Of a stretch of DNA of 37,610 nucleotides, positions 4,570 to 33,057 are shown one piece after another. How positions within the stretch are numbered: position 1 is the first letter of the stretch; each line of letters starts with the position of its first letter. The notes beneath the pieces are model-generated. The model ran no database searches. It saw nothing but the letters and a program-made list of their open reading frames with translations, and was not told the origin of the DNA. The DNA lies in the NCBI GenBank assembly GCA_016839945.1, contig JAEOTE010000100.1, positions 1-37,610 on the forward strand, read 5' to 3'. Source of the stretch: Candidatus Heimdallarchaeota archaeon (lineage in GTDB: Archaea; Asgardarchaeota; Heimdallarchaeia; Heimdallarchaeales; Heimdallarchaeaceae). The position numbers and the translations under genes were made by a program.

Positions 4570-5511
4570 TTGGTCGATGTAGAGGGACTTATAGGTTTCA
4601 TTTTTCAAGCAGGGATAGTGCTACTGATAATTGTGCTTTATACTGCGAAAATAGCTTCTAAAAGAAGAAGAAAAAATCAAATGAGACAACAATCTCAGCA
4701 GTATCACTATTCTGTTCAAGCAACTCCACAAAGAACTCAAACTAGAGTATTTAGAGACCTAGACCAGATTATAAAAGAACTCAACATTACAGATCACATG
4801 CATTTTGAAAGAAGAGAAAATGGTTTTAGCTTTCATGTACCTGAAAATCATCAATATTCCTTATTTTCATCAATAAGAGTAGTAGAAACAAGAAAATATA
4901 TGAAATTATTTGCAAGTCTAAGAAAGTCACTTCCTTCTACTTTAGACATTAGAAAAAGAGAAAGTGCTAAAATGGATTCCTTTCCAACAGAAATCTTGAT
5001 TTCTAAATTGAGCAATGTTTATCAAATATTTTCAGAATCTCCTGCAATCTGGGAAGAAGTGTTGAAAAACGAAAATTCAAAAGAACAACTGTTAGCTCTT
5101 AGAACCTATGTAGAATCTGTTTACATAAGAGGAGATTACGTTGAAGCTGTGGTGTATTACGATGCTGCTGTTTTAAGAATTCTAGAATTTGTCATTTATA
5201 GTCATACAATACTTACAACATTGTTTTCAGGAATAGATGAATATGAAGTTGAAAGTTTAAAATGCTATAATTGTGGGGATCCATTTGATGTCACAGAAGA
5301 AGTGTGTGATAAATGCAACTCTCCAAGACCTCGATGTATAATATGTCATCTCGATTTAAAACGTAGCGATAAAGAAGAAGTTGTCACTCTTCCTTGTTGT
5401 GATATATATAGTCATAAAAATCATATTATTTCGTGGTTGAAACAAAATCCCCATTGCCCTAATTGTCACAAAAATCTAAGTCACTGGTTAAACAAAGTAT
5501 TAATGTTTTGA
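4570..5511 (+). CDS. Membrane-anchored zinc ribbon + RING finger protein (putative E3 ligase-like)
   Basis: N-terminal TM followed by KRRRK; CYNC-x10-CDKC ribbon; CIIC-x16-CC-x4-H-x2-H-x3-W-x6-CPNC. TTG start preceded by GAGGA. Confidence 0.8.
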   Translation: MVDVEGLIGFIFQAGIVLLIIVLYTAKIASKRRRKNQMRQQSQQYHYSVQATPQRTQTRVFRDLDQIIKELNITDHMHFERRENGFSFHVPENHQYSLFSSIRVVETRKYMKLFASLRKSLPSTLDIRKRESAKMDSFPTEILISKLSNVYQIFSESPAIWEEVLKNENSKEQLLALRTYVESVYIRGDYVEAVVYYDAAVLRILEFVIYSHTILTTLFSGIDEYEVESLKCYNCGDPFDVTEEVCDKCNSPRPRCIICHLDLKRSDKEEVVTLPCCDIYSHKNHIISWLKQNPHCPNCHKNLSHWLNKVLMF

Positions 5512-11959: not shown

Positions 11960-12036
11960 TTAGAACCCCTCTATTACCTACCAATAATAATTATAGAGGA
12001 TATCATTTAAATAAGTTGCTATTTAAAGTGATAAAA

Positions 12037-12546
12037 ATGAGTAAAACAGAGAAAAGTAACCTCCTACTAAGAATTTCAATAATTTTTGCTTTAATTGGTT
12101 TCTTAGATTCGCTTTATCTTTTCTACTCTGAGTTGACTGGAAGATTCTTTTGTCCAATCCAAGTGGGAATGTTTGAATGTGAAACCGTTAATACTAGCAA
12201 ATTCGCTAAACTTCTGGGAGTTCATGTTAGCTTTTGGGGGATGCTTTTTTATCTCTTCATAATAGTTGTTCTGTTCCTTTCACAATACACCAAAAACGAA
12301 TATTGGGTAAGTTTCTTTCTTCCTGTAGCAGGATTATGGGGATTTCTTTTTTCAATATATTTAACAGCAATTGAACTCTTTGTAATAAAGAAATTATGTG
12401 AATTTTGTCTACTCTCGGCCATATCTACTACTGTTGTATTTGTTCTAATCCTCTTCGCAAAAAAACTGGTTTTCCCATCTTTGTTCTCGAAACTAGATTT
12501 CTGGAATATGTTTGACAAAGAAAATGATGATGAAAATCAATCTTGA
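12037..12546 (+). CDS. Vitamin K epoxide reductase (VKOR) family protein
   Basis: GFLDSLYL, loop cysteines C-x7-C then TVNTSKFAKLLG, active-site LCEFC, four to five TM helices. ATG at 12037 preferred over TTG at 12016. Confidence 0.9.
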   Translation: MSKTEKSNLLLRISIIFALIGFLDSLYLFYSELTGRFFCPIQVGMFECETVNTSKFAKLLGVHVSFWGMLFYLFIIVVLFLSQYTKNEYWVSFFLPVAGLWGFLFSIYLTAIELFVIKKLCEFCLLSAISTTVVFVLILFAKKLVFPSLFSKLDFWNMFDKENDDENQS

Positions 12547-18064: not shown

Positions 18065-19003
18065 ATGAAACTAAGAACAATAGTTATAGTTATACTATTG
18101 AGTATTGTCTCTTATTCTATAAACCTAAATATACCCTTGGTAAGTGCTAGATGTGAAAACAAAGAAACTACTTCTTTTTCTCCAAATGGATTAATTCAAC
18201 ATTCTCCAATTCGAATTATTTCAGATGAAAATCTTACAGCATACAATTTTCCTGGCTTAGGTACAGAAAATCATCCATATTTAATCAGAAATCTGAACAT
18301 AACAACTAATGAAAGAACGGGATTATACATTTCAAAAACAACCAAACACATTATTATTCAGAACTGCTATATTGATGCATTAAATTATGGCATTGAAATT
18401 GTGCATGTAGCTGATAATACTTTGTTATTGACTGAAAATACTCTTAAAAATAATAGATATTATGGAACTTTTTTTTGGAGAACAGCTTCATCTAATATCT
18501 CCTATAATTATTATTTCAATAATGGAGATGGATTAACTATGTTCTATTCAGATAAGACCTTTATTTCAAATAATACTTGCATTAATAATACAAATTACGG
18601 GATTTACTTATCTCGTTCAAAGTCATGCAATGTTACATATAACGTGCTAAAAGAGAATGAAAAGTATGGAGTTGTACTTGGACGTTACACAGAGTTTTGT
18701 GCAGTCCATCACAATTATTTTATCAACAATAACTTAGGTGGATCCTCTCAAGCTTATGATCATGGTTCAAATAACATTTTTTATGATTTAGAAACTAACG
18801 AAGGGAATTGGTGGAACGATTGTTTAAGTGAAAATTATGATATAGATGGCAATACTATGGCTGTTGATTTTTATCCACTTGGTAAAATACCTAATGAAGA
18901 AGAAATGCAAAGAACATCTTATAATTTACTTCTATCCTTGGTTCTGTTTCCTACAATAGCAGTTTTATATCTGCTACAAAAAAGAACAAAAAGAAAAAAC
19001 TAG
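18065..19003 (+). CDS. Secreted right-handed parallel beta-helix (NosD/CASH-like) surface protein
   Basis: Signal peptide; Asn-ladder repeats (NNRYYG, NNGDGL, NNTNYGIYL, ENEKYGV); GNWW...DFYPL; C-terminal TM + basic tail. Confidence 0.82.
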   Translation: MKLRTIVIVILLSIVSYSINLNIPLVSARCENKETTSFSPNGLIQHSPIRIISDENLTAYNFPGLGTENHPYLIRNLNITTNERTGLYISKTTKHIIIQNCYIDALNYGIEIVHVADNTLLLTENTLKNNRYYGTFFWRTASSNISYNYYFNNGDGLTMFYSDKTFISNNTCINNTNYGIYLSRSKSCNVTYNVLKENEKYGVVLGRYTEFCAVHHNYFINNNLGGSSQAYDHGSNNIFYDLETNEGNWWNDCLSENYDIDGNTMAVDFYPLGKIPNEEEMQRTSYNLLLSLVLFPTIAVLYLLQKRTKRKN

Positions 19004-23707: not shown

Positions 23708-24262
23708 CTGTTTTTTGTAATAACAGGACCAATAAGTATTGGAAAAACAACCCTGATGAAAAATATAATTAGAAAATTCAAGCACTCATATAGTGTTGCT
23801 GGAGTTATAACTGAAGGACAAGAAAATAGGTTTTTTGTTAACGTTAAAACAAATGAAAAAGTTTCTTTTTATTTTGAAGGAGAAGAAATAGCAGAAGAAA
23901 TAGGAAAATATTCAATCTCCAAAAGAGCAATGAGTTTCGCTAATAATGTGATTAAATCATCTTATAGTTCTCAAATAATTTTCATAGATGAAGTAGGTAG
24001 ATTGGAGGGAGAAAGAAAGTGTATGTATGAGCAGATTTCAGGATTGGTTGATGAAACAAACAGAATGAAAGATAAAGCAGTTATTATGATCGTAAGAGAG
24101 GACTTACTTCATGAAATCTTAGTATTGCTTGACATTAAACCCATGAAAATATGGTCTTTACACAAAAAACCCAAAGAGAAAAATGTTAGAGAAATATATG
24201 ATTTTATTTTGCATGCGATAACAAAAGGAGGGAGGGAGGATTGTGAGTTTGAAAATATTTAA
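23708..24262 (+). CDS. P-loop nucleoside triphosphatase (THEP1/NTPase_1-like)
   Basis: Walker A FVITGPISIGKTT is encoded in frame upstream of the ATG at 23756; Walker B IFIDEVGRLE; SVAGVITE. The only plausible start that keeps the P-loop is CTG at 23708. Confidence 0.8.
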   Translation: MFFVITGPISIGKTTLMKNIIRKFKHSYSVAGVITEGQENRFFVNVKTNEKVSFYFEGEEIAEEIGKYSISKRAMSFANNVIKSSYSSQIIFIDEVGRLEGERKCMYEQISGLVDETNRMKDKAVIMIVREDLLHEILVLLDIKPMKIWSLHKKPKEKNVREIYDFILHAITKGGREDCEFENI

Positions 24263-24272
24263 ACTCACAATC
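24239..24272. repeat. Perfect 12-bp inverted repeat with a 10-nt spacer
   Basis: GATTGTGAGTTT (24239-24250) and AAACTCACAATC (24261-24272) are exact reverse complements. Confidence 0.9.
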
Positions 24273-24356
24273 AATATGATTGTAGTATGAAATTATATAA
24301 AAGCTTCTATTTTGTTCTTGGGTAAAATTGATAAATAAGTGATTAAATCTCCTTGC

Positions 24357-25649
24357 ATGAAAAAGAAATCAACATATTTTCTTATATTTCTGATTTTAGG
24401 GACTTCTTTCATAAGTTTTAGTAATTTCAATAAAACTGTAATGCCTGCTAAAACAGATGAAGAAGATACATTTCTAAAACCAGAGCTAATTGATAATGGA
24501 TTACTTGCTCCAGAATTCAACATTACTGATGCTGATTCTCTTATTACATACAATTTAACAGATTTCCAAGGAAAAATGGTTGCTATAGATTTTTTTGCTA
24601 CTTGGTGTGTATATTGTATGGATTCTTTACCCTATATACGTCAATTATACTTGATGTATCCTGAAGATATGCTACAAATAATTTCTCTAGATACTGATAC
24701 ATCAGAGTCTAATGCTCAAATTTCCTCTTTTCGAAAAAAATGGGGTATGGATTGGATAGTGGGTAGTGATACATATGGAGTTAATGATGAATATGATATT
24801 TCAGGAATACCTTCTTTCTTCTTAATAAATCAAACTGGACATATAGTATGGAGTGAAGAGGGTTTTGCAGATTCTATGTGGCCTGGTTTTAGAGCAACTT
24901 TTGCTAGTTATTTGCCTGATGATACAGTAGATCCTATAATAACAGACTTTAGTGTAGAAAATAAAACAGAATTTTCAATATTTAATACAGAAATAAATAT
25001 TTTTGCTAATATAACTGAAGATAGGAATGTAAAAACAACTCAATTAAAAATAGAAACAAGTGGTCAAACAGAATTTATAGATCTGCCTTTTAATACAGAA
25101 GGAGATTTCAATATTATAAATGAATCAATAAGTATTGACCCTCTAATAGTATATGGAGAATCGCATATTGATTTAACCGTACAAGCTATTGATTACTTCG
25201 ATAATGTTGGAGTTTCAAGCGTAGAAGCTCTATCAGTAGCTAATTATGTAGATACAGCAGTACCTGAAATAGGAGAAGTAGCAATCATACTTGATGATGA
25301 TGGTTCAAGCAAGTATAATCTAACTGTTGAGGTTGAGGTAACAGAGGATTTACTATTGGTTGAAGCTGCTCTTTTAATACTAAAAGGAACTACACAACTG
25401 AAGTATATATACTTAGAACAGTTTAATTCAACTCATATGATTGCTAGTTGTGAATTGCCAAGATCAATAGCACCTCCAGAAGATATCACTGCAAAGGTCT
25501 TTCTTAGAGATGCTGCAAATAATACAGCTGAAGAAGCATATGACGTTCTTGATATTCCTGAAAATACTGAAAAAACGAGCTTAAATATCCTATATGCACT
25601 TTCTGCATTATTTATCATAATTATGTATTCCAAAAGGAGAAAGAAGTAG
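24357..25649 (+). CDS. Surface-anchored TlpA-like thioredoxin with acidic beta-rich stalk domains
   Basis: Signal peptide; APEFNI, DFFATWCVYC, cis-Pro GIPSFFLIN; two similar beta-rich modules (DTVDPII...AIDYFDNVG; DTAVPEI...LRDAANNTA); TM + KRRKK. Confidence 0.85.
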   Translation: MKKKSTYFLIFLILGTSFISFSNFNKTVMPAKTDEEDTFLKPELIDNGLLAPEFNITDADSLITYNLTDFQGKMVAIDFFATWCVYCMDSLPYIRQLYLMYPEDMLQIISLDTDTSESNAQISSFRKKWGMDWIVGSDTYGVNDEYDISGIPSFFLINQTGHIVWSEEGFADSMWPGFRATFASYLPDDTVDPIITDFSVENKTEFSIFNTEINIFANITEDRNVKTTQLKIETSGQTEFIDLPFNTEGDFNIINESISIDPLIVYGESHIDLTVQAIDYFDNVGVSSVEALSVANYVDTAVPEIGEVAIILDDDGSSKYNLTVEVEVTEDLLLVEAALLILKGTTQLKYIYLEQFNSTHMIASCELPRSIAPPEDITAKVFLRDAANNTAEEAYDVLDIPENTEKTSLNILYALSALFIIIMYSKRRKK

Positions 25650-25658
25650 CTCAGATCC

Positions 25659-25679
25659 TTTTTTTACCTTCTTTTTTTT
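25659..25679 (+). terminator. Oligo-T terminator candidate
   Basis: T7 and T8 tracts starting 10 nt after the stop at 25649, followed by TATA-like TTTTAAAT (25694-25701) 28 nt upstream of the next start. Confidence 0.5.
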
Positions 25680-25721
25680 ACTTAAGTAAAGCCTTTTAAA
25701 TCAAAGTTTTTTTCTTGATGC

Positions 25722-27011
25722 GTGAAGAAAGGACAAATAGCTTTTATCCTAATTTCTATTGTAATAATCGGTGGAGGAATAGGAGTCTATTTCTTAATTC
25801 AATCTTCATCGAAAAAATCTTCTACTGCTCCAAATTATGAATTAGAGAGTATTTCAGGATATAATTTCACCATTTCTTCTCTTGAAAACACGACTGTCAT
25901 ACTTGATTTTATGAGTGTAACTTGCATCCCTTGTAAACAGATGTACCCAATATTAAATGACCTTCAAAATGATGATGATCTTATGGGAAAAATTGAGATA
26001 ATATCCATTGAAACAGACTATACTACAACTATTCCTCAGCTAGAATCATATGCTTTAGATCAGAACATTACTTGGATACTCTGTAAGGCTCCCACAAACA
26101 TGACAGAAGATTATGGTGTTGTAACTCTTCCAACCTTTGTGATAATTAATCCTGAAGGTCTTGTAACATATATTGAAGAAGGAATAATTTCCTTTGACAA
26201 ATTAAAAGATGAGAGTCAAAAAGCAATAGAAGGAATAAGTGAAGGAATACAAATTACAAGTTATCAAGGATTCATAATTGGATTTGCAATTGTAGTTGCA
26301 ATGTCTTCTTTCTTCTCACCCTGTTCTTTCCCTCTTCTTCCAGGATATGTAGCTCACATAATAGGTGTAGATGTAGATGCAAAACAAAAAGAAGAGGAAG
26401 AAGAAGAAAAAGAAACTGATAAAACTTTGAAACAAGCTTTCCTTTATCCACTGCTTGGATTAAGCGGAGGTATCGGAATTTTGATCAGTTATTTAATTTT
26501 AGGTGTTATAGTTAGTTCTGTAGGAAAAGCAATTTTACCTTACTTAGTTTATGCTCTTCCCATAATTGGAGGATTATTCATCATACTTGGAATAGTAATG
26601 TTCACTAATTTCAATATTTCATTTTCAAAACTACTAGGATGGTTAAGAAAAGAACAAATGAAAATCAGTAAAACAGAAAAGAAAGCAACAATCTTTAGAA
26701 AAATATTCAGCACTTTCCTTTATGGTTTAGGCTATGGAATAGCATCTCTCGGATGTAATGGACCAATTTTCCTAGCATTTAGTCTGCAAGTGTCTGGACA
26801 AGAAACAATTGCAAAAATGATTTTTGCTTATCTAGCGTTTTCATTAACAATAATTCTCTTAATGGTAGGAGTAACAATAATACTCATCTTTTCAAGGGAT
26901 GTTATAGTCCAGAAATTAAAAGCTTCTACTGAAGTTATTAAGAAGATAAGTGGAGTAATCATGTTATTAGTAGGAATATATTTAATTCTAGAATTTGCAT
27001 TAGGGGCGTAA
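25722..27011 (+). CDS. TlpA-like thioredoxin fused to CcdA/DsbD transmembrane electron transporter
   Basis: N-terminal anchor; DFMSVTCIPC and TLPTFVIIN; six-TM domain with both conserved cysteines (SFFSPCSFPLLPGY; SLGCNGP) and KKISGVIMLLVGIYL. Confidence 0.9.
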   Translation: MKKGQIAFILISIVIIGGGIGVYFLIQSSSKKSSTAPNYELESISGYNFTISSLENTTVILDFMSVTCIPCKQMYPILNDLQNDDDLMGKIEIISIETDYTTTIPQLESYALDQNITWILCKAPTNMTEDYGVVTLPTFVIINPEGLVTYIEEGIISFDKLKDESQKAIEGISEGIQITSYQGFIIGFAIVVAMSSFFSPCSFPLLPGYVAHIIGVDVDAKQKEEEEEEKETDKTLKQAFLYPLLGLSGGIGILISYLILGVIVSSVGKAILPYLVYALPIIGGLFIILGIVMFTNFNISFSKLLGWLRKEQMKISKTEKKATIFRKIFSTFLYGLGYGIASLGCNGPIFLAFSLQVSGQETIAKMIFAYLAFSLTIILLMVGVTIILIFSRDVIVQKLKASTEVIKKISGVIMLLVGIYLILEFALGA

Positions 27012-27012
27012 A

Positions 27013-27561
27013 ATGATTAGAAAAAATAGAAACGAAATAATTTTCACAACTTTAATGTTATTTTTAGTTTTAACTTTGAATTCAAGAACAATACAAGCAG
27101 AAATAGATTATGGGATTAGCTCTGTCTCTATAGATCCCCAACCTTTGGTTGCTGGAGAAAACATGACAATTGTTGCGAATTTTTATGATACAACTAATGT
27201 AAGTTTAGTTAAATTACTAGTGTGTCAACTAGCTCCCGAATTTAAATGTGAACTAACACCCATTATTATGGAAGAAGAATCATCTTTGAGTTATGAAGGG
27301 AAGTTCTTAGTGTATTATGAGAATGGAGTTTCGGTAGGATTCCATCTTCAGATAGTATATGAAAATGGTTCATCAATATTAATTCCAGATAGAGAAAATT
27401 TCTTAGGTTTTAATACATCAGAACCTGAGACAGATGAGTTCTTTTTCTATGCTGGAATAGTAGGAGATTCAACTGAAAAAACTAAGGGAATTGTAGTAAT
27501 TACATCTGTCTTATCACTGATGGTAATAACGATATGGATTAAAAGAAGAAAGAACCAATAA
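27013..27561 (+). CDS. Secreted, C-terminally anchored beta-rich hypothetical protein with a C-x7-C pair
   Basis: Signal peptide; SIDPQPLVAGENMTIVA (Ig-like start); CQLAPEFKC; TM + KRRK; starts 1 nt after the ccdA stop. Confidence 0.75.
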   Translation: MIRKNRNEIIFTTLMLFLVLTLNSRTIQAEIDYGISSVSIDPQPLVAGENMTIVANFYDTTNVSLVKLLVCQLAPEFKCELTPIIMEEESSLSYEGKFLVYYENGVSVGFHLQIVYENGSSILIPDRENFLGFNTSEPETDEFFFYAGIVGDSTEKTKGIVVITSVLSLMVITIWIKRRKNQ

Positions 27562-27565
27562 TAGT

Positions 27566-27892
27566 TTGATGAATAATGAAATGGTGAATGAAGCTGGGAG
27601 AGGAGAAATCTGTTATTTTTGTAAAACTGATTTGAAGAATGTAGAGAGAAAACAGAAAACAGAACTCAGATGTTGCAAACTAGTTGCTCATAAGAAAGAA
27701 TTATTCCAATGGTTTTTAAAACATCAATATTGTCCTAATTGTCTTGCGGATGATAAGAAAGTAAGACAACAAATACTAGATTGGGGATTGAAGAAAGATA
27801 CTAAAAAGAAGAAATCAATTAAATCTATTGAACACAAGAAATGGAAAAATCAAAGATATGAGAAAAGACTGAGAGATACTAAGAAAGACTGA
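27566..27892 (+). CDS. Small soluble RING-variant protein with very basic tail
   Basis: CYFC-x16-CC-x4-H-x2-E-x3-W-x6-CPNC; Lys/Arg-rich C-terminus. Confidence 0.72.
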   Translation: MMNNEMVNEAGRGEICYFCKTDLKNVERKQKTELRCCKLVAHKKELFQWFLKHQYCPNCLADDKKVRQQILDWGLKKDTKKKKSIKSIEHKKWKNQRYEKRLRDTKKD

Positions 27893-27942
27893 ATTTTTGT
27901 AATTAGAAAATATTAAAATATGCTCCAAAGGTTTTCTGACTT

Positions 27943-28743
27943 GTGACACAGAAGAAATACTTACTAGCTCTCTCATTGATTATTATTCCACTACTTGCTA
28001 TTCCTATTAATGGGAATTATTCAGAGATTTCTGTAGGTTCGGAAAAACAATCAAAGACTTCTATAATTAAACAAACAACTTCTGATTTTACTATCCAAGA
28101 TGTAAATTCAGGTACATCCTATTCTCTTAGTGATTTTTGGGGTAAAGTTGTAGTTCTAGATATGTTTGCAACATGGTGTGGTCCATGCCAAATATCTCTT
28201 CCTTACTTAAGAGAGTTATATTCAGAATATTCAGAAGAAAAAGTTCAGATTATTTCGATTGCTGTTGATCCTTCTGAGAGTCTAGCTACTATCTCTCAAT
28301 TTCGTGATGATGAAAACATGGATTGGATTGTAGGTAAGGATTTAGATGGTTCCATTGCTACTGATTACGGTGTAAGTTCTATTCCAGTTTTCTATGTAAT
28401 AGATCAAAATGGAGAAATAGAATGGAATGATAGTGGTTTTACAGCTGATGGAACATGGCCAGTAATGGAAAGTACAATAAAAAAATTAGTGCGTGATGCT
28501 CAAGAGACACCAATAGTAGCAAGAGTATTTTTAATCATTCTTGAAGTAGGTGCTGGTTTAGGAGCTGCAGCTGGTATCATATTTGTTATATATAAAATAC
28601 GCAAACGATTAGGTGTTAAAAACTGTTTAAACTGCAATGCTGTGGCTAATTCAAAGTGTTCGAAATGTAGTACTTTGATATGTTCAAATTGTTCAGTAAA
28701 TGGTTGCCCAAATTGTGGTAGCACAAAATTTGTAAGATTATGA
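27943..28743 (+). CDS. TlpA-like thioredoxin - TM - 8-Cys zinc finger protein
   Basis: Signal peptide; DMFATWCGPC, SIPVFYVIDQNG; TM then KIRKR; CLNC-x7-CSKC-x4-CSNC-x4-CPNC. Confidence 0.85.
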   Translation: MTQKKYLLALSLIIIPLLAIPINGNYSEISVGSEKQSKTSIIKQTTSDFTIQDVNSGTSYSLSDFWGKVVVLDMFATWCGPCQISLPYLRELYSEYSEEKVQIISIAVDPSESLATISQFRDDENMDWIVGKDLDGSIATDYGVSSIPVFYVIDQNGEIEWNDSGFTADGTWPVMESTIKKLVRDAQETPIVARVFLIILEVGAGLGAAAGIIFVIYKIRKRLGVKNCLNCNAVANSKCSKCSTLICSNCSVNGCPNCGSTKFVRL

Positions 28744-29415
28744 TTTCTTCTTTTCTAATATCTTTTTCATTTTTGTAACACTAACTGCTTTTCCATGAGA
28801 AACAAATACTTCCTTCACTCCTTCTTTTAGAAGACGTTTCCAACTTGAATATATTTGATTTATATCTTCTGCAACTGTGGGTAATCCGGGATTAAATCGT
28901 AAAGGAAAACCATGAGCGCAACATCCAATAAAAGCAACACCATCTTCAGAAACTAACGAAACAGTTCCAAGAGTATGCCCTGGAGTGTGAATAACCTTAG
29001 CTTTAACACCAAATTCATCAAGAGAATATTCATCTTTTATAATTATATCAGGTTCAACAGGATCATATAGCTTTAGAGATTTAGGTATTAGTTTGAAGAG
29101 TAACTTAACTACAAAAGAAATGGGTTTAGGTTCTACGCTTATCCCTTTACGAAGATATTCTGCATCGTTTTCATGAACAAGAACTTTAGCATTAGTGATT
29201 TCCTTTAATGTTTTTAGTCCTCCTACATGATCAAAATGGGCGTGGTTGACAATAATTAATTTGATCTCGCTTGGATCAATGTTGTTTTTCTTTAACAAAC
29301 GAAGATATTTTTTAACATTAGATTTATAACCAGCATCCATCTGAACATAGCCTTTTTCTCCCTTAAGTAATTGGATATTGGTAAAACCTAGATCAAGTTC
29401 AATATGTTTTGCCAT
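28738..29415 (-). CDS. Metallo-beta-lactamase fold hydrolase
   Basis: MDAG, HAHFDH, HTPGHT, final SHG. Confidence 0.88.
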   Translation of the reverse strand: MAKHIELDLGFTNIQLLKGEKGYVQMDAGYKSNVKKYLRLLKKNNIDPSEIKLIIVNHAHFDHVGGLKTLKEITNAKVLVHENDAEYLRKGISVEPKPISFVVKLLFKLIPKSLKLYDPVEPDIIIKDEYSLDEFGVKAKVIHTPGHTLGTVSLVSEDGVAFIGCCAHGFPLRFNPGLPTVAEDINQIYSSWKRLLKEGVKEVFVSHGKAVSVTKMKKILEKKKS

Positions 29416-29513
29416 AAAACCTTAATTGATATATTTTTTTTAAGCGTTCTGATGGATTTTGTATTAAAATTACTCCGAGTTGTAAACAAGTAGAAGAGAA
29501 GGGATTATTATTT

Positions 29514-30323
29514 TCAATTTATGAATTCTATTATATCTTTAGTAAACTGCTTACTAGTTATAATATTATGACCTTTGTTTGCATAGATTTTTAGGATTGC
29601 TTCTGGAATTAATTGCTCCATTTCCTTTAGGTAATTCAAAGGCATATAGTAATCATTATCTCCACAGAGAATTAGGACTGGTTTCTTAATCTCTGTTAAT
29701 CGATCTTTGGTATTATGTGTGACTTCAGCATTTGCTTCAATAAGTGTATCCTGACCGTAAGTTTCACCTTTAAAACTCATAAATGAACCAAAGAAATAAA
29801 ATAATGGTCTTAACAAAAATCTCATGAATCTATTAGAAATGAAAACTGTAGGTATAGTAGAGAACGCTTTACCAGGTTTTCCTCCACTTATGTACTTTGC
29901 ATAGTTTAGATCAAATCGCATTCCTTCATCTGAACCCTTGTAAGTGGCCATAGCTACTATGAAATAATCACTCATCTCAGGAAAATCAGCAGCAAAATGT
30001 TGAATAATAAAACCTCCAAAAGAAATACCTATAATTACATCCACTTTTCCATTAAACTCTTGATTTATCATCGTTGCATAATCATTTGACATATCTAAAG
30101 TTGTATAATTTTCTGGTAAACCTGATTTTCTAGAGACGAAATAAACTGTATAATCCTGAGTGAAGGTAAAGAAGGATTTCGCAGACATTCTAAAACCTAA
30201 ACCTTCTTGAAGCATATTCCCTGGTCCTCCCTGAAAGACAATCATGTTTTTCTTGCCTGAGCCAAATTTTAGATAAGGAATACCATTTGAAAAAATGTCA
30301 TAAACAGGTTTAATCTTACTCAA
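29514..30323 (-). CDS. Alpha/beta hydrolase
   Basis: Nucleophile elbow GISFGG, PVLILCGDND, GH near the C-terminus. Confidence 0.88.
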   Translation of the reverse strand: MSKIKPVYDIFSNGIPYLKFGSGKKNMIVFQGGPGNMLQEGLGFRMSAKSFFTFTQDYTVYFVSRKSGLPENYTTLDMSNDYATMINQEFNGKVDVIIGISFGGFIIQHFAADFPEMSDYFIVAMATYKGSDEGMRFDLNYAKYISGGKPGKAFSTIPTVFISNRFMRFLLRPLFYFFGSFMSFKGETYGQDTLIEANAEVTHNTKDRLTEIKKPVLILCGDNDYYMPLNYLKEMEQLIPEAILKIYANKGHNIITSKQFTKDIIEFIN

Positions 30324-31065: not shown

Positions 31066-33057
31066 TTGAAAAAAGAATCTATAAGATTAAGTGGTAATTC
31101 CTTCCTTAGGATTGTTATCTTGTTATTAGTTATTACACTTATCCCGTTTTCATATGCAGAAAATAATAATAAACTCTTTGATATAGAAATTCAGAAGATT
31201 TCTTATGATCCAATAATTATTTCATCAGATGCTGATTTTGGACCTTCAGGATATAATCTTCCGGGTTCTGGAACCTTTGGAGATCCTTACAGAATTGAGA
31301 AGTTAAACATCAATACACAGGCAGAATATGCAGTAGAAATAAGAGAAGTAACTTCCTATTTCGTGGTTGAAAGTAATAATCTGAAAGGATCTTTAGGAGG
31401 TCTTTATATCTCAAGTATTCTTCCTGGTCACACAAATATTTCTAATAATTCGTTCATTAAAATCGAAGATGGTACAGGAATTATTCTTACCAGTTCTGAT
31501 CAAGTTGAGATTAGAAATAACAATTTTCTTGATACAAATACAGCAATTGATTGTTCTCTTTCTACTGATGTTTCTATTATTGATAACGATATCAAATTTG
31601 GAAATAATGGAATAATCTTGAAAGATTCTCCAGGAGCTTTGATAAGGAATAATGAAATCTTATCTATGACAGGAAATTCCATTAGATTACAAGATTCCCA
31701 CTCTTCTCAGATTCGTTTGAATCAGATTAATGAAACTGGTACTGCTATGATTCTTGAATCAAATCATGTAGATGTTTGCAGTAATGTCATTTATGCAAAT
31801 ACTCAGGGAATACTAATTGAACAATCTATAGGTAGTAAATTCTGCGAAAATTTCATCTATCACAATTTAGGGGGAGCGATTTATCTCTCAACCTCAATTC
31901 AAAATATTAAAGAAGATAATGTGTTTTACCATAATTATTTCATTGCAAATAGTGAAGGAGAAAATCCTCAAGCAAAAAGTTATGGAACAAATAACACTTG
32001 GTATAACACAACACTGAATGAAGGAAACTATTGGAATGATGCAAATAAAACTGGACCATATTATCTTGAAGGAGCTATAGATTATTATCCTCTTACAACA
32101 ACTGATCGAGACAATGATGGACTAGATGATATAAACGAGAGATACGTATATTTTACAGATTTAGATTTCAATGATACAGATTTAGATGAACTTCTTGATG
32201 GAGAAGAGGTCTATACCTATTTCACAAGTCCTACTGATTCAGATTCAGACAATGATCGATTGAAAGATGGTGAAGAAGTTTTAATTTACGGAACAAACGC
32301 CTTAGATCCTGATACTGACAATGATTTATTGGATGATTATGAAGAACTTATGATTTACTTCACAGATGCTTTTGATCCAGATACTGATGATGACTCAATT
32401 CCTGACGGATGGGAAGTACTGAAAGGTCTTGATCCTTTAGTTGATGATTCTACATTAGATTACGACAATGATGAATTAAGCAATGTTGAGGAATATTACC
32501 TTGGTACACATCCATTCTTAAATGATACAGATTTTGATGATTTATTAGATGGAATAGAGGTGAATACTTACGGTACAGACCCTCTAGACAAAGATTCAGA
32601 CAATGACAACTTATTTGATGGTGAGGAGATTTTGGTGTATTTCACTAATGCTCTTAATCCGGATTCTGACAATGACACTCTCACAGATGGGATTGAGGTC
32701 AATGTTTATTTTACAAACCCTTTGAGTAATGATACAGATCTTGATAATTTGCCTGATCCATGGGAGATAGAATATGAACTTGATCCTTTGTTTGATGATT
32801 CATCTCTTGATCCTGATAATGACGATCTTACAAATTTAGGAGAATATTTAGCGGGAACACACCCATTTCTAAATGACACAGACGGGGACAAATTCTTGGA
32901 TGGAAAAGAAGTAAAAGCTGGAACTGATCCTCTGGATCCAAATGATTATCCCTTGTCTTCAAAACAGATAACTATGATTATAATTAGTTCTGTATCTGTA
33001 GCTATTATAGTTTCCGCATTAATAACAGGAATAGTAACTAAAATTCGTAAACGATGA
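31066..33057 (+). CDS. Surface protein: right-handed beta-helix + Ca-binding TSP3-like repeats + C-terminal TM
   Basis: Signal peptide; GSGTFGDPYRI cap; beta-helix repeats; GNYW...DYYPL; 12 DxDxDxxxDxxE-type repeats; TM + KIRKR. Confidence 0.85.
   Translation: MKKESIRLSGNSFLRIVILLLVITLIPFSYAENNNKLFDIEIQKISYDPIIISSDADFGPSGYNLPGSGTFGDPYRIEKLNINTQAEYAVEIREVTSYFVVESNNLKGSLGGLYISSILPGHTNISNNSFIKIEDGTGIILTSSDQVEIRNNNFLDTNTAIDCSLSTDVSIIDNDIKFGNNGIILKDSPGALIRNNEILSMTGNSIRLQDSHSSQIRLNQINETGTAMILESNHVDVCSNVIYANTQGILIEQSIGSKFCENFIYHNLGGAIYLSTSIQNIKEDNVFYHNYFIANSEGENPQAKSYGTNNTWYNTTLNEGNYWNDANKTGPYYLEGAIDYYPLTTTDRDNDGLDDINERYVYFTDLDFNDTDLDELLDGEEVYTYFTSPTDSDSDNDRLKDGEEVLIYGTNALDPDTDNDLLDDYEELMIYFTDAFDPDTDDDSIPDGWEVLKGLDPLVDDSTLDYDNDELSNVEEYYLGTHPFLNDTDFDDLLDGIEVNTYGTDPLDKDSDNDNLFDGEEILVYFTNALNPDSDNDTLTDGIEVNVYFTNPLSNDTDLDNLPDPWEIEYELDPLFDDSSLDPDNDDLTNLGEYLAGTHPFLNDTDGDKFLDGKEVKAGTDPLDPNDYPLSSKQITMIIISSVSVAIIVSALITGIVTKIRKR
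32101..32946 (+). repeat. Twelve intragenic TSP3-like acidic repeats of about 22-26 aa
   Basis: Units such as DTDLDELLDGEE, DSDNDRLKDGEE, DSDNDTLTDGIE; a three-unit block containing GTHPFLNDTD occurs twice. Confidence 0.85.

Follow-up and report, generated by a model that had tools for sequence, protein, structure and literature searches.

A thioredoxin-CcdA fusion and a two-cysteine Ig-like protein as a probable split DsbD-type relay in a Heimdallarchaeota genome

Bacteria offer well-studied extracytoplasmic thiol-redox pathways (DsbD, ScsB, CcdA), but little has been established about their archaeal counterparts. A stretch of DNA from Candidatus Heimdallarchaeota archaeon (family Heimdallarchaeaceae, to which the source names of homologues also point; 37,610 nucleotides, assembly GCA_016839945.1, contig JAEOTE010000100.1, positions 1 to 37,610; hereafter the window) carries five co-oriented genes, g1 to g5 (Table 1), which raise three questions: do they form such a pathway, what would it act on, and does the RING-like gene among them tie it to ubiquitin-type signalling? 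The original prediction, made from the DNA alone, saw in them an anchored TlpA-like thioredoxin (g1), a TlpA-CcdA fusion (g2), an anchored protein with a lone Cys pair (g3), a soluble RING variant (g4) and a TlpA-like protein with a transmembrane helix (TM) and an 8-Cys finger (g5), and read the whole as a surface thiol-redox relay whose state is reported inward. All five open reading frames are confirmed with these architectures, and so are the two short gaps, i.e., 1 nt between g2 and g3 and 4 nt between g3 and g4. The idea of a surface relay also receives support, as a relay built on the thioredoxin-CcdA fusion: we consider it probable that g1, g2 and g3, with g5 as a further client, make up a split extracytoplasmic thiol-reducing relay of the DsbD/CcdA type, in which g3 would be the alpha-like component. 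Systems of this kind are already known, and what is new here is a previously unnamed alpha-like module within one of them.

The thioredoxin-CcdA protein g2 is made of an N-terminal signal anchor, an outward thioredoxin domain (C68-I-P-C71, cis-Pro137) and a membrane domain (residues ~172–429). The best PDB matches of its thioredoxin domain are ResA structures (E 4.5e-10). As for the membrane half, 12 of the 17 orthologues match DsbD_TM (best E 8.8e-16) and five match DsbD_2, while the top PDB match of the orthologue profile is the CcdA of Thermus thermophilus (5VKV, E 5.9e-4), aligned over the Cys motif of the first TM. Moreover, Cys201 (SFFSPCxFPxxP) and Cys345 (ASxGCxxPI) are invariant in 17 orthologues (SPCSFP and GCNGP in the window copy); g2 thus has the two redox Cys expected of CcdA/DsbD_TM proteins, one per half, in Pro-flanked motifs within membrane helices. 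Because of the DsbD_TM matches of the orthologues, the profile match to 5VKV and the invariant Cys201/Cys345, g2 is accepted, on sequence grounds, as a divergent thioredoxin-CcdA fusion, and the earlier assignment is borne out by its orthologues and profile rather than by the Pfam score of the window copy.

The partnership of g2 with g3 rests on gene linkage, domain fusions and a predicted contact. Sixty related genomes were searched with g4, g2, the g5 tail, full-length g5 (30 genomes) and a g3 profile, and 22 fetched loci were examined. Wherever the sequence continues beyond the 3' end of g2, which is the case in 17 loci, g3 adjoins g2, often with an overlap, and the g3 profile search shows at the genome level that g3 follows g2. 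These 17 loci come from the genus of the window, from three further genera of the family, with two single-contig genomes among them, and from another family of the same class (f6). Among the neighbourhoods of the other genera and f6, no conserved client gene was found: g1-g2-g3 alone is common to the lineages, the other neighbours outside the genus being unrelated (ATPase subunits, endonuclease dU, OsmC on the opposite strand in f6). In two f6 genomes, this OsmC-like gene lies directly beyond g3. A further f6 genome (G048) has a contig-end fragment of g2 (71% identical) with a g3 copy (E 1.2e-67), both resembling the genus of the window and not f6, which could be bin contamination or a recent transfer.

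Domain fusions point the same way. Three proteins of ~600 amino acids (P0194, P0216 and P0243) combine a g3-like domain, two TMs, a redoxin domain and DsbD_TM/DsbD_2, the cluster of P0216 including a Thermoplasmata protein, while P0230 (602 amino acids) has a redoxin match and no DsbD_TM match at the threshold used. In P0202 (399 amino acids), a g3-like domain is joined to DsbD_TM, and its gene comes after a separate redoxin gene in an operon; in P0177 and P0204, the g3-like domain is joined to a redoxin. Across the g3-like fusions, which share 17–34% identity, Cys71, Cys79 and one proline are the only invariant residues. Finally, complex prediction with g2 residues 30–172 and g3 residues 30–153 yielded an interaction prediction score from aligned errors (ipSAE) of 0.78, whereas the highest of the three controls reached 0.23. 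At least 91% of the contacts are common to the runs, and the partner score in the predicted local distance difference test (pLDDT) is at least 87. At the predicted interface, residues 63–73 of g2 (including C68 and C71) and its cis-Pro loop (133–137) face C71 and residues 76–81 of g3, Cys68 being opposite Cys79. Thioredoxins usually meet their disulfide partners in this way. As a model, the prediction supports binding rather than showing it. Altogether, adjacency, fusions and the complex score argue for g3 as a direct partner of g2, as had been proposed for the two-Cys protein with respect to the relay.

The protein g3 belongs to no named family: no sequence match was found in Pfam, NCBIfam or PDB, profile searches included. 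It consists of a signal peptide, an Ig-like beta-sandwich (residues 30–153) with Cys71 and Cys79 in a hairpin, a C-terminal TM and a Lys/Arg-rich tail. The AlphaFold2 (AF2) model, based on 20 orthologues, shows a confident beta-sandwich over residues 30–153 (mean pLDDT 85.6, core >90), so that, as in DsbD alpha, a modelled Ig-like sandwich bears one Cys pair, Cys71/Cys79, which is invariant in diverse homologues. Met86 is likewise invariant in the 20 orthologues, and a Gly109-Tyr/Phe-His motif is kept in most of them. Fold searches (Foldseek against PDB, VIA wide) returned generic Ig-like, ML, E-set or carbohydrate-binding module (CBM) domains, with VIA Z values of at most 9.7; nDsbD is absent among the Foldseek and VIA matches listed, which does not show that the folds differ. 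An exhaustive profile search retrieved 238 cluster representatives, 90 of them at E ≤1e-10, and the look-alikes recognized by their features are unnamed clusters from Heimdallarchaeota and Thermoplasmatota. In four species, g3 is followed by a paralogue, g3' (Table 1).

In DsbD, electrons pass from cytoplasmic thioredoxin to the membrane domain beta, then to the thioredoxin-like gamma, the Ig-like alpha and finally to thioredoxin-fold clients (DsbC, DsbG, CcmG). Building on the domain identities, invariant Cys, gene linkage, domain fusions and phyletic patterns observed here, along with the predicted g2-g3 contact, the archaeal relay would run as follows. Cytoplasmic thioredoxin would reduce the Cys201/Cys345 pair of the CcdA-like membrane domain of g2, which would in turn reduce the fused outward thioredoxin domain (Cys68/Cys71), the equivalent of DsbD gamma. 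This domain would then reduce Cys71/Cys79 of g3, which, as the counterpart of DsbD alpha, would serve as an adaptor between thioredoxin folds and hand the electrons to the anchored TlpA-like reductases g1 and g5, the probable clients. These might finally keep the Cys of surface proteins reduced or reshuffle disulfides of a VKOR pathway. Three elements of this scheme are what we infer: which way the electrons flow, their transfer from g3 to g1 and g5, and the final substrates.

The genome offers some context for such a path. A TrxR-like gene is present, and the only VKOR homologue (84 bits) is encoded outside the operon, 12 kb upstream of the five genes. VKOR is an oxidative, disulfide-forming membrane enzyme, and its presence suggests that disulfides arise extracellularly, and these would be what a reducing or isomerizing branch corrects. 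If true, these Asgard archaea would manage their envelope disulfides by an oxidizing (VKOR) and a reducing branch. The VKOR gene is single-copy and roughly syntenic in most relatives. As a co-varying partner of the relay, VKOR was rejected, being present in genomes with and without g2 and not found in f6, and it is taken as context only.

Set against known systems, the locus resembles DsbD of E. coli and ScsB in several respects: the membrane domain of g2 has two Cys in homologous motifs, an outward thioredoxin is on the same polypeptide, a two-Cys beta-sandwich partner is predicted to dock on the thioredoxin active site, and TlpA/CcmG-like proteins are the probable clients. For the ScsB class, it has been proposed that separate alpha domains cooperate with CcdA or with fusions of beta and gamma (PMC3322552), and split and fused permutations exist for the g3-like domain as they do for ScsB alpha. 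The differences are nonetheless numerous. Here, gamma precedes beta and alpha has a gene to itself, and the Thermoplasmata fusions are arranged alpha-gamma-beta, not alpha-beta-gamma; the membrane domain of g2 is of the six-helix CcdA type instead of having eight helices; no homology of g3 to the alpha domains of DsbD and ScsB is detectable, its Cys pair is spaced as C-x7-C rather than C-x5-C, and it is tethered to the membrane by a C-terminal anchor of its own; finally, the system is archaeal. The second point of comparison is CcdA with ResA/StoA in Bacillus or with Etrx in Streptococcus pneumoniae, where a CcdA-type transporter also feeds membrane-anchored ResA/TlpA-like thioredoxins. Unlike in these systems, CcdA here bears the first thioredoxin as a fused domain, a two-Cys Ig-like partner is present and obligatory, and no cytochrome c, spore-cortex or MsrAB client is seen. 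Thus, an unnamed two-Cys Ig-like family of Heimdallarchaeia and Thermoplasmatota has apparently been recruited independently as an alpha-type adaptor of a CcdA-thioredoxin transporter and, if this is confirmed, g3 would add a third type of alpha module to the DsbD superfamily.

Several observations weigh against this interpretation. The membrane half of g2 in the window has itself no match to DsbD_TM (PF02683), either in Pfam or in the genome search. The cytoplasmic loop after its first CcdA helix has a Glu/Lys-rich insert of variable length, acidic in all orthologues, and this insert may be the reason why the window copy falls below the Pfam threshold. With no link between g3 and DsbD alpha found by sequence or by fold, the alpha role is an analogy. 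In the calibration of the complex tool, the mark was reached by 58 of the 80 solved complexes and by two of the 110 mismatched pairs, figures that apply only roughly to runs made, like ours, with the authors' own alignments, and the score itself may partly reflect memorized thioredoxin-substrate geometries. The co-occurrence counts make the evidence look stronger than it is, as the genomes, being related, are not independent of each other. In addition, no VKOR match was found in f6, which has g1-g2-g3, so the pairing with VKOR is not general. Finally, in the paralogue g3', Tyr replaces Cys71 and a C79-x-C81 pair is found instead.

Another role considered for g3 is that of a dedicated end substrate, i.e., a surface protein whose Cys pair is kept reduced, or is reduced after export, for a function of its own (metal binding, adhesion, covalent attachment), in which case g1 and g5 would be reduced directly by the thioredoxin domain of g2 or by another route. 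Linkage, fusions and complex prediction indeed reveal a partnership with g2, not an onward transfer; the invariant Met86 and the mostly conserved Gly109-Tyr/Phe-His could suggest a ligand site; and the gene is duplicated in several species, with a changed Cys pattern. However, permanent fusion to reductase and transporter, which is seen in several lineages, would be expected of a relay domain (such as the alpha of DsbD/ScsB) more than of a substrate, and the fusions of g3-like domains to free redoxins (P0177, P0204) fit an adaptor serving several thioredoxin folds, while neither Pfam nor the profile searches matched any metal-binding family. We therefore regard g3 as an end substrate as unlikely, though deserving consideration, and keep to the relay with g3 as its adaptor.

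In that relay, the putative clients g1 and g5 are recognizable thioredoxins. Along with the N-terminal part of g2, both belong to the Redoxin/AhpC-TSA/ResA-TlpA group, above the cut-offs of Pfam and NCBIfam (for g1, 54 bits with Redoxin and 75 bits with the ResA subfamily). Their CxxC motifs are WCVYC in g1 and WCGPC in g5 (CIPC in g2), each domain being preceded by a signal anchor or signal peptide, and the Cys and cis-Pro are invariant in the alignments of g2 and g5 orthologues. In fold match, CxxC, cis-Pro loop and extracytoplasmic location, g1, the N-terminal domain of g2 and g5 are thus TlpA/ResA/CcmG-like. According to hydropathy, g1 is composed of a signal anchor, the TlpA/ResA-like thioredoxin, a C-terminal extension of ~230 amino acids, a C-terminal TM and a Lys/Arg-rich tail. 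The best Atlas lead for the extension is to bacterial Ig-like (Big) domains, with a score of 0.82, below 0.9, and is a lead at most. The extension was also considered as a g3-like domain, a candidate that was dropped when hhalign of g1 against the g3 profile aligned the C-terminal anchor alone. Both g1 and g3 end with the same type of signal, a short polar stretch followed by one hydrophobic helix and a Lys/Arg-rich tail, reminiscent of archaeal C-terminal sorting or anchor signals.

The distribution of these genes is consistent with a common system. In most loci, g1 adjoins g2 upstream, lying ~7 kb off in two genomes (G027 and G030). Among the genomes G001 to G018, g1-type matches are confined to those bearing g2 (7/9 at the threshold used), and full-length g5 is found in eight of the nine genomes with g2 and in none of the nine without it, even though it is on a different contig from g2 in five of these eight. 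Hence, g1, g2, g3 and g5 share one phyletic pattern, an observation that is supportive rather than statistical.

As to what the relay acts on, the classical clients of CcdA are cytochrome c maturation (ResA/CcdA, System II), CuA/Sco assembly (TlpA) and Scs-like copper tolerance. The closest named relatives, i.e., ResA, TlpA, DsbE and StoA, would favour such a purpose, and so would the NosD-like beta-helix genes near the locus, one of which is inserted between g1 and g2 in G001. Yet NosD-type beta-helix proteins are not conserved neighbours, and the conserved neighbourhoods, which share g1-g2-g3 only, contain no gene for any of these functions. The flanks of the locus in the window are equally devoid of cytochrome c, Ccm/Ccs and peroxiredoxin genes, in keeping with the absence already noted from the DNA, and no consistent linkage to cytochrome c maturation, which the original prediction had singled out as worth checking, is seen in the relatives. 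At the genome level (88% complete), neither Cytochrom_C_asm (PF01578; CcsA/CcmC/CcmF), in a search that matches nine of 14 control genomes, nor COX1 is matched, a result that speaks against the maturation of cytochrome c or CuA being the role of the locus, and a CcsA/ResC-type haem-handling partner, as expected for System II, is found neither in the genome nor in the locus. On this basis, a classical CcdA client is highly improbable.

Is the state of the relay reported to the cytoplasm? The first candidate for this is the tail of g5, which has a signal peptide, the TlpA-like thioredoxin, a TM and a cytoplasmic finger, with four CxxC pairs within 31 residues. All eight Cys and a terminal F-x-R-L are invariant in 16 sequences, and the TM with its finger tail is present in 29 of the 30 genomes of the family. 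The best Pfam match is zf-B_box (PF00643; 19.4 bits, E 0.0012), below the cut-off of 24.1, so the tail resembles the B-box zinc finger in this match but differs from it in its sub-threshold score, its all-Cys ligands and its connection, through a TM, to extracytoplasmic folding-type domains, an architecture of which we found no description. The same tail also ends proteins with weakly FKBP-like ectodomains and, because of this, is not specific to thioredoxins: the TM-finger tail is a general module on exported folding-type domains, and its earlier interpretation as a thioredoxin-linked inward reporter is not upheld. These other proteins are encoded in the same genome (G000, contig 154) by three tandem genes of ~200–220 amino acids, each with a signal peptide, a small ectodomain, a TM and the 8-Cys tail; two of the three ectodomains have weak FKBP_C matches (20.9 and 15.5 bits, cut-off 21.1). 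A gene for a Ras-family small GTPase adjoins the trio.

The second candidate is g4. Its match to zf-RING_2 (PF13639) reaches 15.9 bits, below the cut-off of 27.3, but 12 of the 13 PDB matches of its orthologue profile are RING-H2 E3 ligases (best Hrd1/synoviolin, E 0.0098). Invariant residues are C16, C19, C36, C37, H42, E45, W49, C56 and C59, followed by a Lys/Arg-rich helical tail. In the alignment with Hrd1, H42 corresponds to ligand 5, E45 to ligand 6 and W49 to the Trp of the helix, while the canonical ligand 4 (His) has no counterpart, perhaps being replaced by the adjacent Cys36; the eight zinc ligands of a C3H2C3 RING are thus incomplete, ligand 4 being absent and ligand 6 an invariant Glu. 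The AF2 model (pLDDT 62 overall, 66–78 in the core) has a beta-hairpin then a helix, and its top Foldseek matches are RING domains, at ~1.9 Å over 48 residues but with E values of at least 0.058. In comparison with RING-H2 E3 ligases (Hrd1/synoviolin, Arkadia, RNF38) and with the small RING of the Caldiarchaeum ubiquitin operon (PMC5654768), the alignment of g4 covers the entire RING-H2 core and, relative to the ligases, g4 keeps ligands 1, 2, 3, 5, 7 and 8, the helix Trp and a predicted beta-beta-alpha fold; unlike them, it is below the Pfam threshold, lacks ligand 4, has Glu as ligand 6 and is not in a ubiquitin operon. A word-based homologue search returned nine close relatives only. RING-like proteins are a large family here, with dozens of paralogues of 300–450 amino acids in the genus and ten zf-RING_2 matches in this genome (for a paralogue in the window, see Table 1), and g4 appears to be a degenerate member of this lineage-specific RING-H2-like family.

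The distribution of g4 does not follow that of the redox genes. Full-length orthologues (41–77% identity) are found only in the genus of the window, in 10 of the 24 relatives. In six of these genomes (G004, G009, G011, G013, G014 and G016), g4 occurs without g2 anywhere in the assembly and, in five of the six, it is on the same side of a block of HIT, DAK2 and NTPase genes, adjacent to it in G016 and G004 and 1.3–8 kb away in the others. In the closest relative, G016, g4 comes directly after the HIT-DAK2-NTPase block; in G013, a 38-residue remnant of the g2 C-terminus persists between the NTPase gene and g4; in G004, there is a g3 remnant, and g4 itself is decaying, with stop codons. Conversely, at least 15 genomes have g2-g3 and no g4 (at least eight of them from the genus, four from other genera within the family and three from f6), and the hidden Markov model (HMM) of g4 orthologues has no match in the loci of these genomes. 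The order DAK2-NTPase-g1-g2-g3 is already present in another genus (G025). The most parsimonious scenario has g4 emerging downstream of g3 in a single genus and then outliving later losses of the redox genes. Because of this phyletic discordance with g1-g2-g3-g5, g4 is judged to lie outside the redox system, as a genus-specific, cytosolic protein that is a neighbour of g3 by chance, even though its gene is probably co-transcribed with g2-g3 in this genome, to judge from the layout of the DNA.

At face value, a coupling of thiol redox to ubiquitylation, with the state of the surface relay reported inward to g4 and to the g5 finger, has some appeal. Besides its distance of 4 nt from g3 in the window, g4 overlaps g3 or g3', or directly adjoins one of them, in four other species (G001, G006, G015 and G023) and on two metagenomic contigs; it is RING-H2-like and retains the Trp through which E2 is usually contacted; g5, for its part, crosses the membrane and has a B-box-like finger on the cytoplasmic side. 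Moreover, the genome encodes four UQ_con and three ThiF matches, so that E1- and E2-type proteins, which the original prediction had advised looking for, do exist. They are, however, away from the locus: on contig 69, an E2 (UQ_con), a 367-amino acid zf-RING_2 protein and an E1-like ThiF are clustered, and contig 129 has a second ThiF and UQ_con pair. Ubiquitin-type machinery is thus present in the genome and not tied to the redox locus, its operon having a RING protein of its own. Beyond this, g4 is restricted to a single genus, where it persists after the loss of g1-g2-g3-g5 and decays in G004, and it is absent from most genomes having these genes; it has no membrane or redox-sensing part and an imperfect set of zinc ligands; RING-like domains are abundant in genus and genome alike; and the g5 tail is also borne by weakly FKBP-like proteins. 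With g4 not conserved beside the thioredoxin genes, the coupling to RING/ubiquitin proposed earlier is abandoned, and we regard it as scarcely credible. Very improbable, too, is a broader device in which the TM and 8-Cys tail would report the folding state of extracytoplasmic domains to cytosolic RING/ubiquitin-type machinery, with g4 as a genus-level reader; if true, it would be a prokaryotic forerunner of receptors of the ectodomain-TM-RING/B-box kind. For Asgard genomes in general, the case calls for caution, in that a common function does not follow from the adjacency of a "eukaryote-like" RING gene to other genes, nor even from their probable co-transcription.

Table 1. Coordinates of the genes and other features discussed, in the window or in the locus or contig named.
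Feature	Sequence	Position	Strand	Description
g1	window	24357..25649	+	from ATG, 430 amino acids; alternative GTG start at 24339 (436 amino acids); WCVYC
g2	window	25722..27011	+	429 amino acids; CIPC, then polytopic membrane domain with Cys201 and Cys345
g3	window	27013..27561	+	182 amino acids; only two Cys, 71 and 79 (C-x7-C)
g4	window	27566..27892	+	108 amino acids; soluble, no hydrophobic segment
g5	window	27943..28743	+	266 amino acids; WCGPC, one internal TM, eight C-terminal Cys
g5 TM and finger tail	window	28495-28740	+	
C-terminal signal of g1	window	25590-25649		
C-terminal signal of g3	window	27490-27561		
Cytoplasmic loop insert of g2	window	26340-26390		g2 residues ~207-225
T-rich tract and TTTAAA/TATA-like box after g1	window	25650-25721		
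T-rich tract and TTTAAA/TATA-like box after g4	window	27893-27942		
g4 paralogue	window	4570..5511	+	313 amino acids; same RING variant, CC-x4-H spacing, His at the g4 Glu45 position; zf-RING_2 23.2 to 27.7 bits
VKOR homologue	window	12016..12546	+	only one in the genome
NosD-like beta-helix genes	window	18065-19003 and 31066-33057		
g3'	L017	8386-8985		
g3'	L018	2585-3169		
g3'	L025	8062-8646		
g3'	L026	7359-7949		
OsmC-like gene	L032	7008-7451		f6; strand opposite to g3
OsmC-like gene	L033	10050-10502		f6; strand opposite to g3
g2 fragment and g3 copy	G048 contig 65	1-817		
Tandem genes with g5-type tail	G000 contig 154	13266-14787	-	L036:1764-3726
E2, zf-RING_2 and ThiF cluster	G000 contig 69	~24250-30000		locus L037

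The remaining features concern the layout of the locus. Upstream, it is flanked by HIT-like, DAK2 and NTPase genes and, downstream, by genes for a metallo-beta-lactamase fold protein, an alpha/beta hydrolase and a SnoaL-like protein, all unrelated to the redox genes. Finally, T-rich tracts directly 3' of the stop codons of g1 and g4 are followed by TTTAAA/TATA-like boxes, which, as a reading of the sequence, suggests separate transcripts for g1, g2-g3-g4 and g5.

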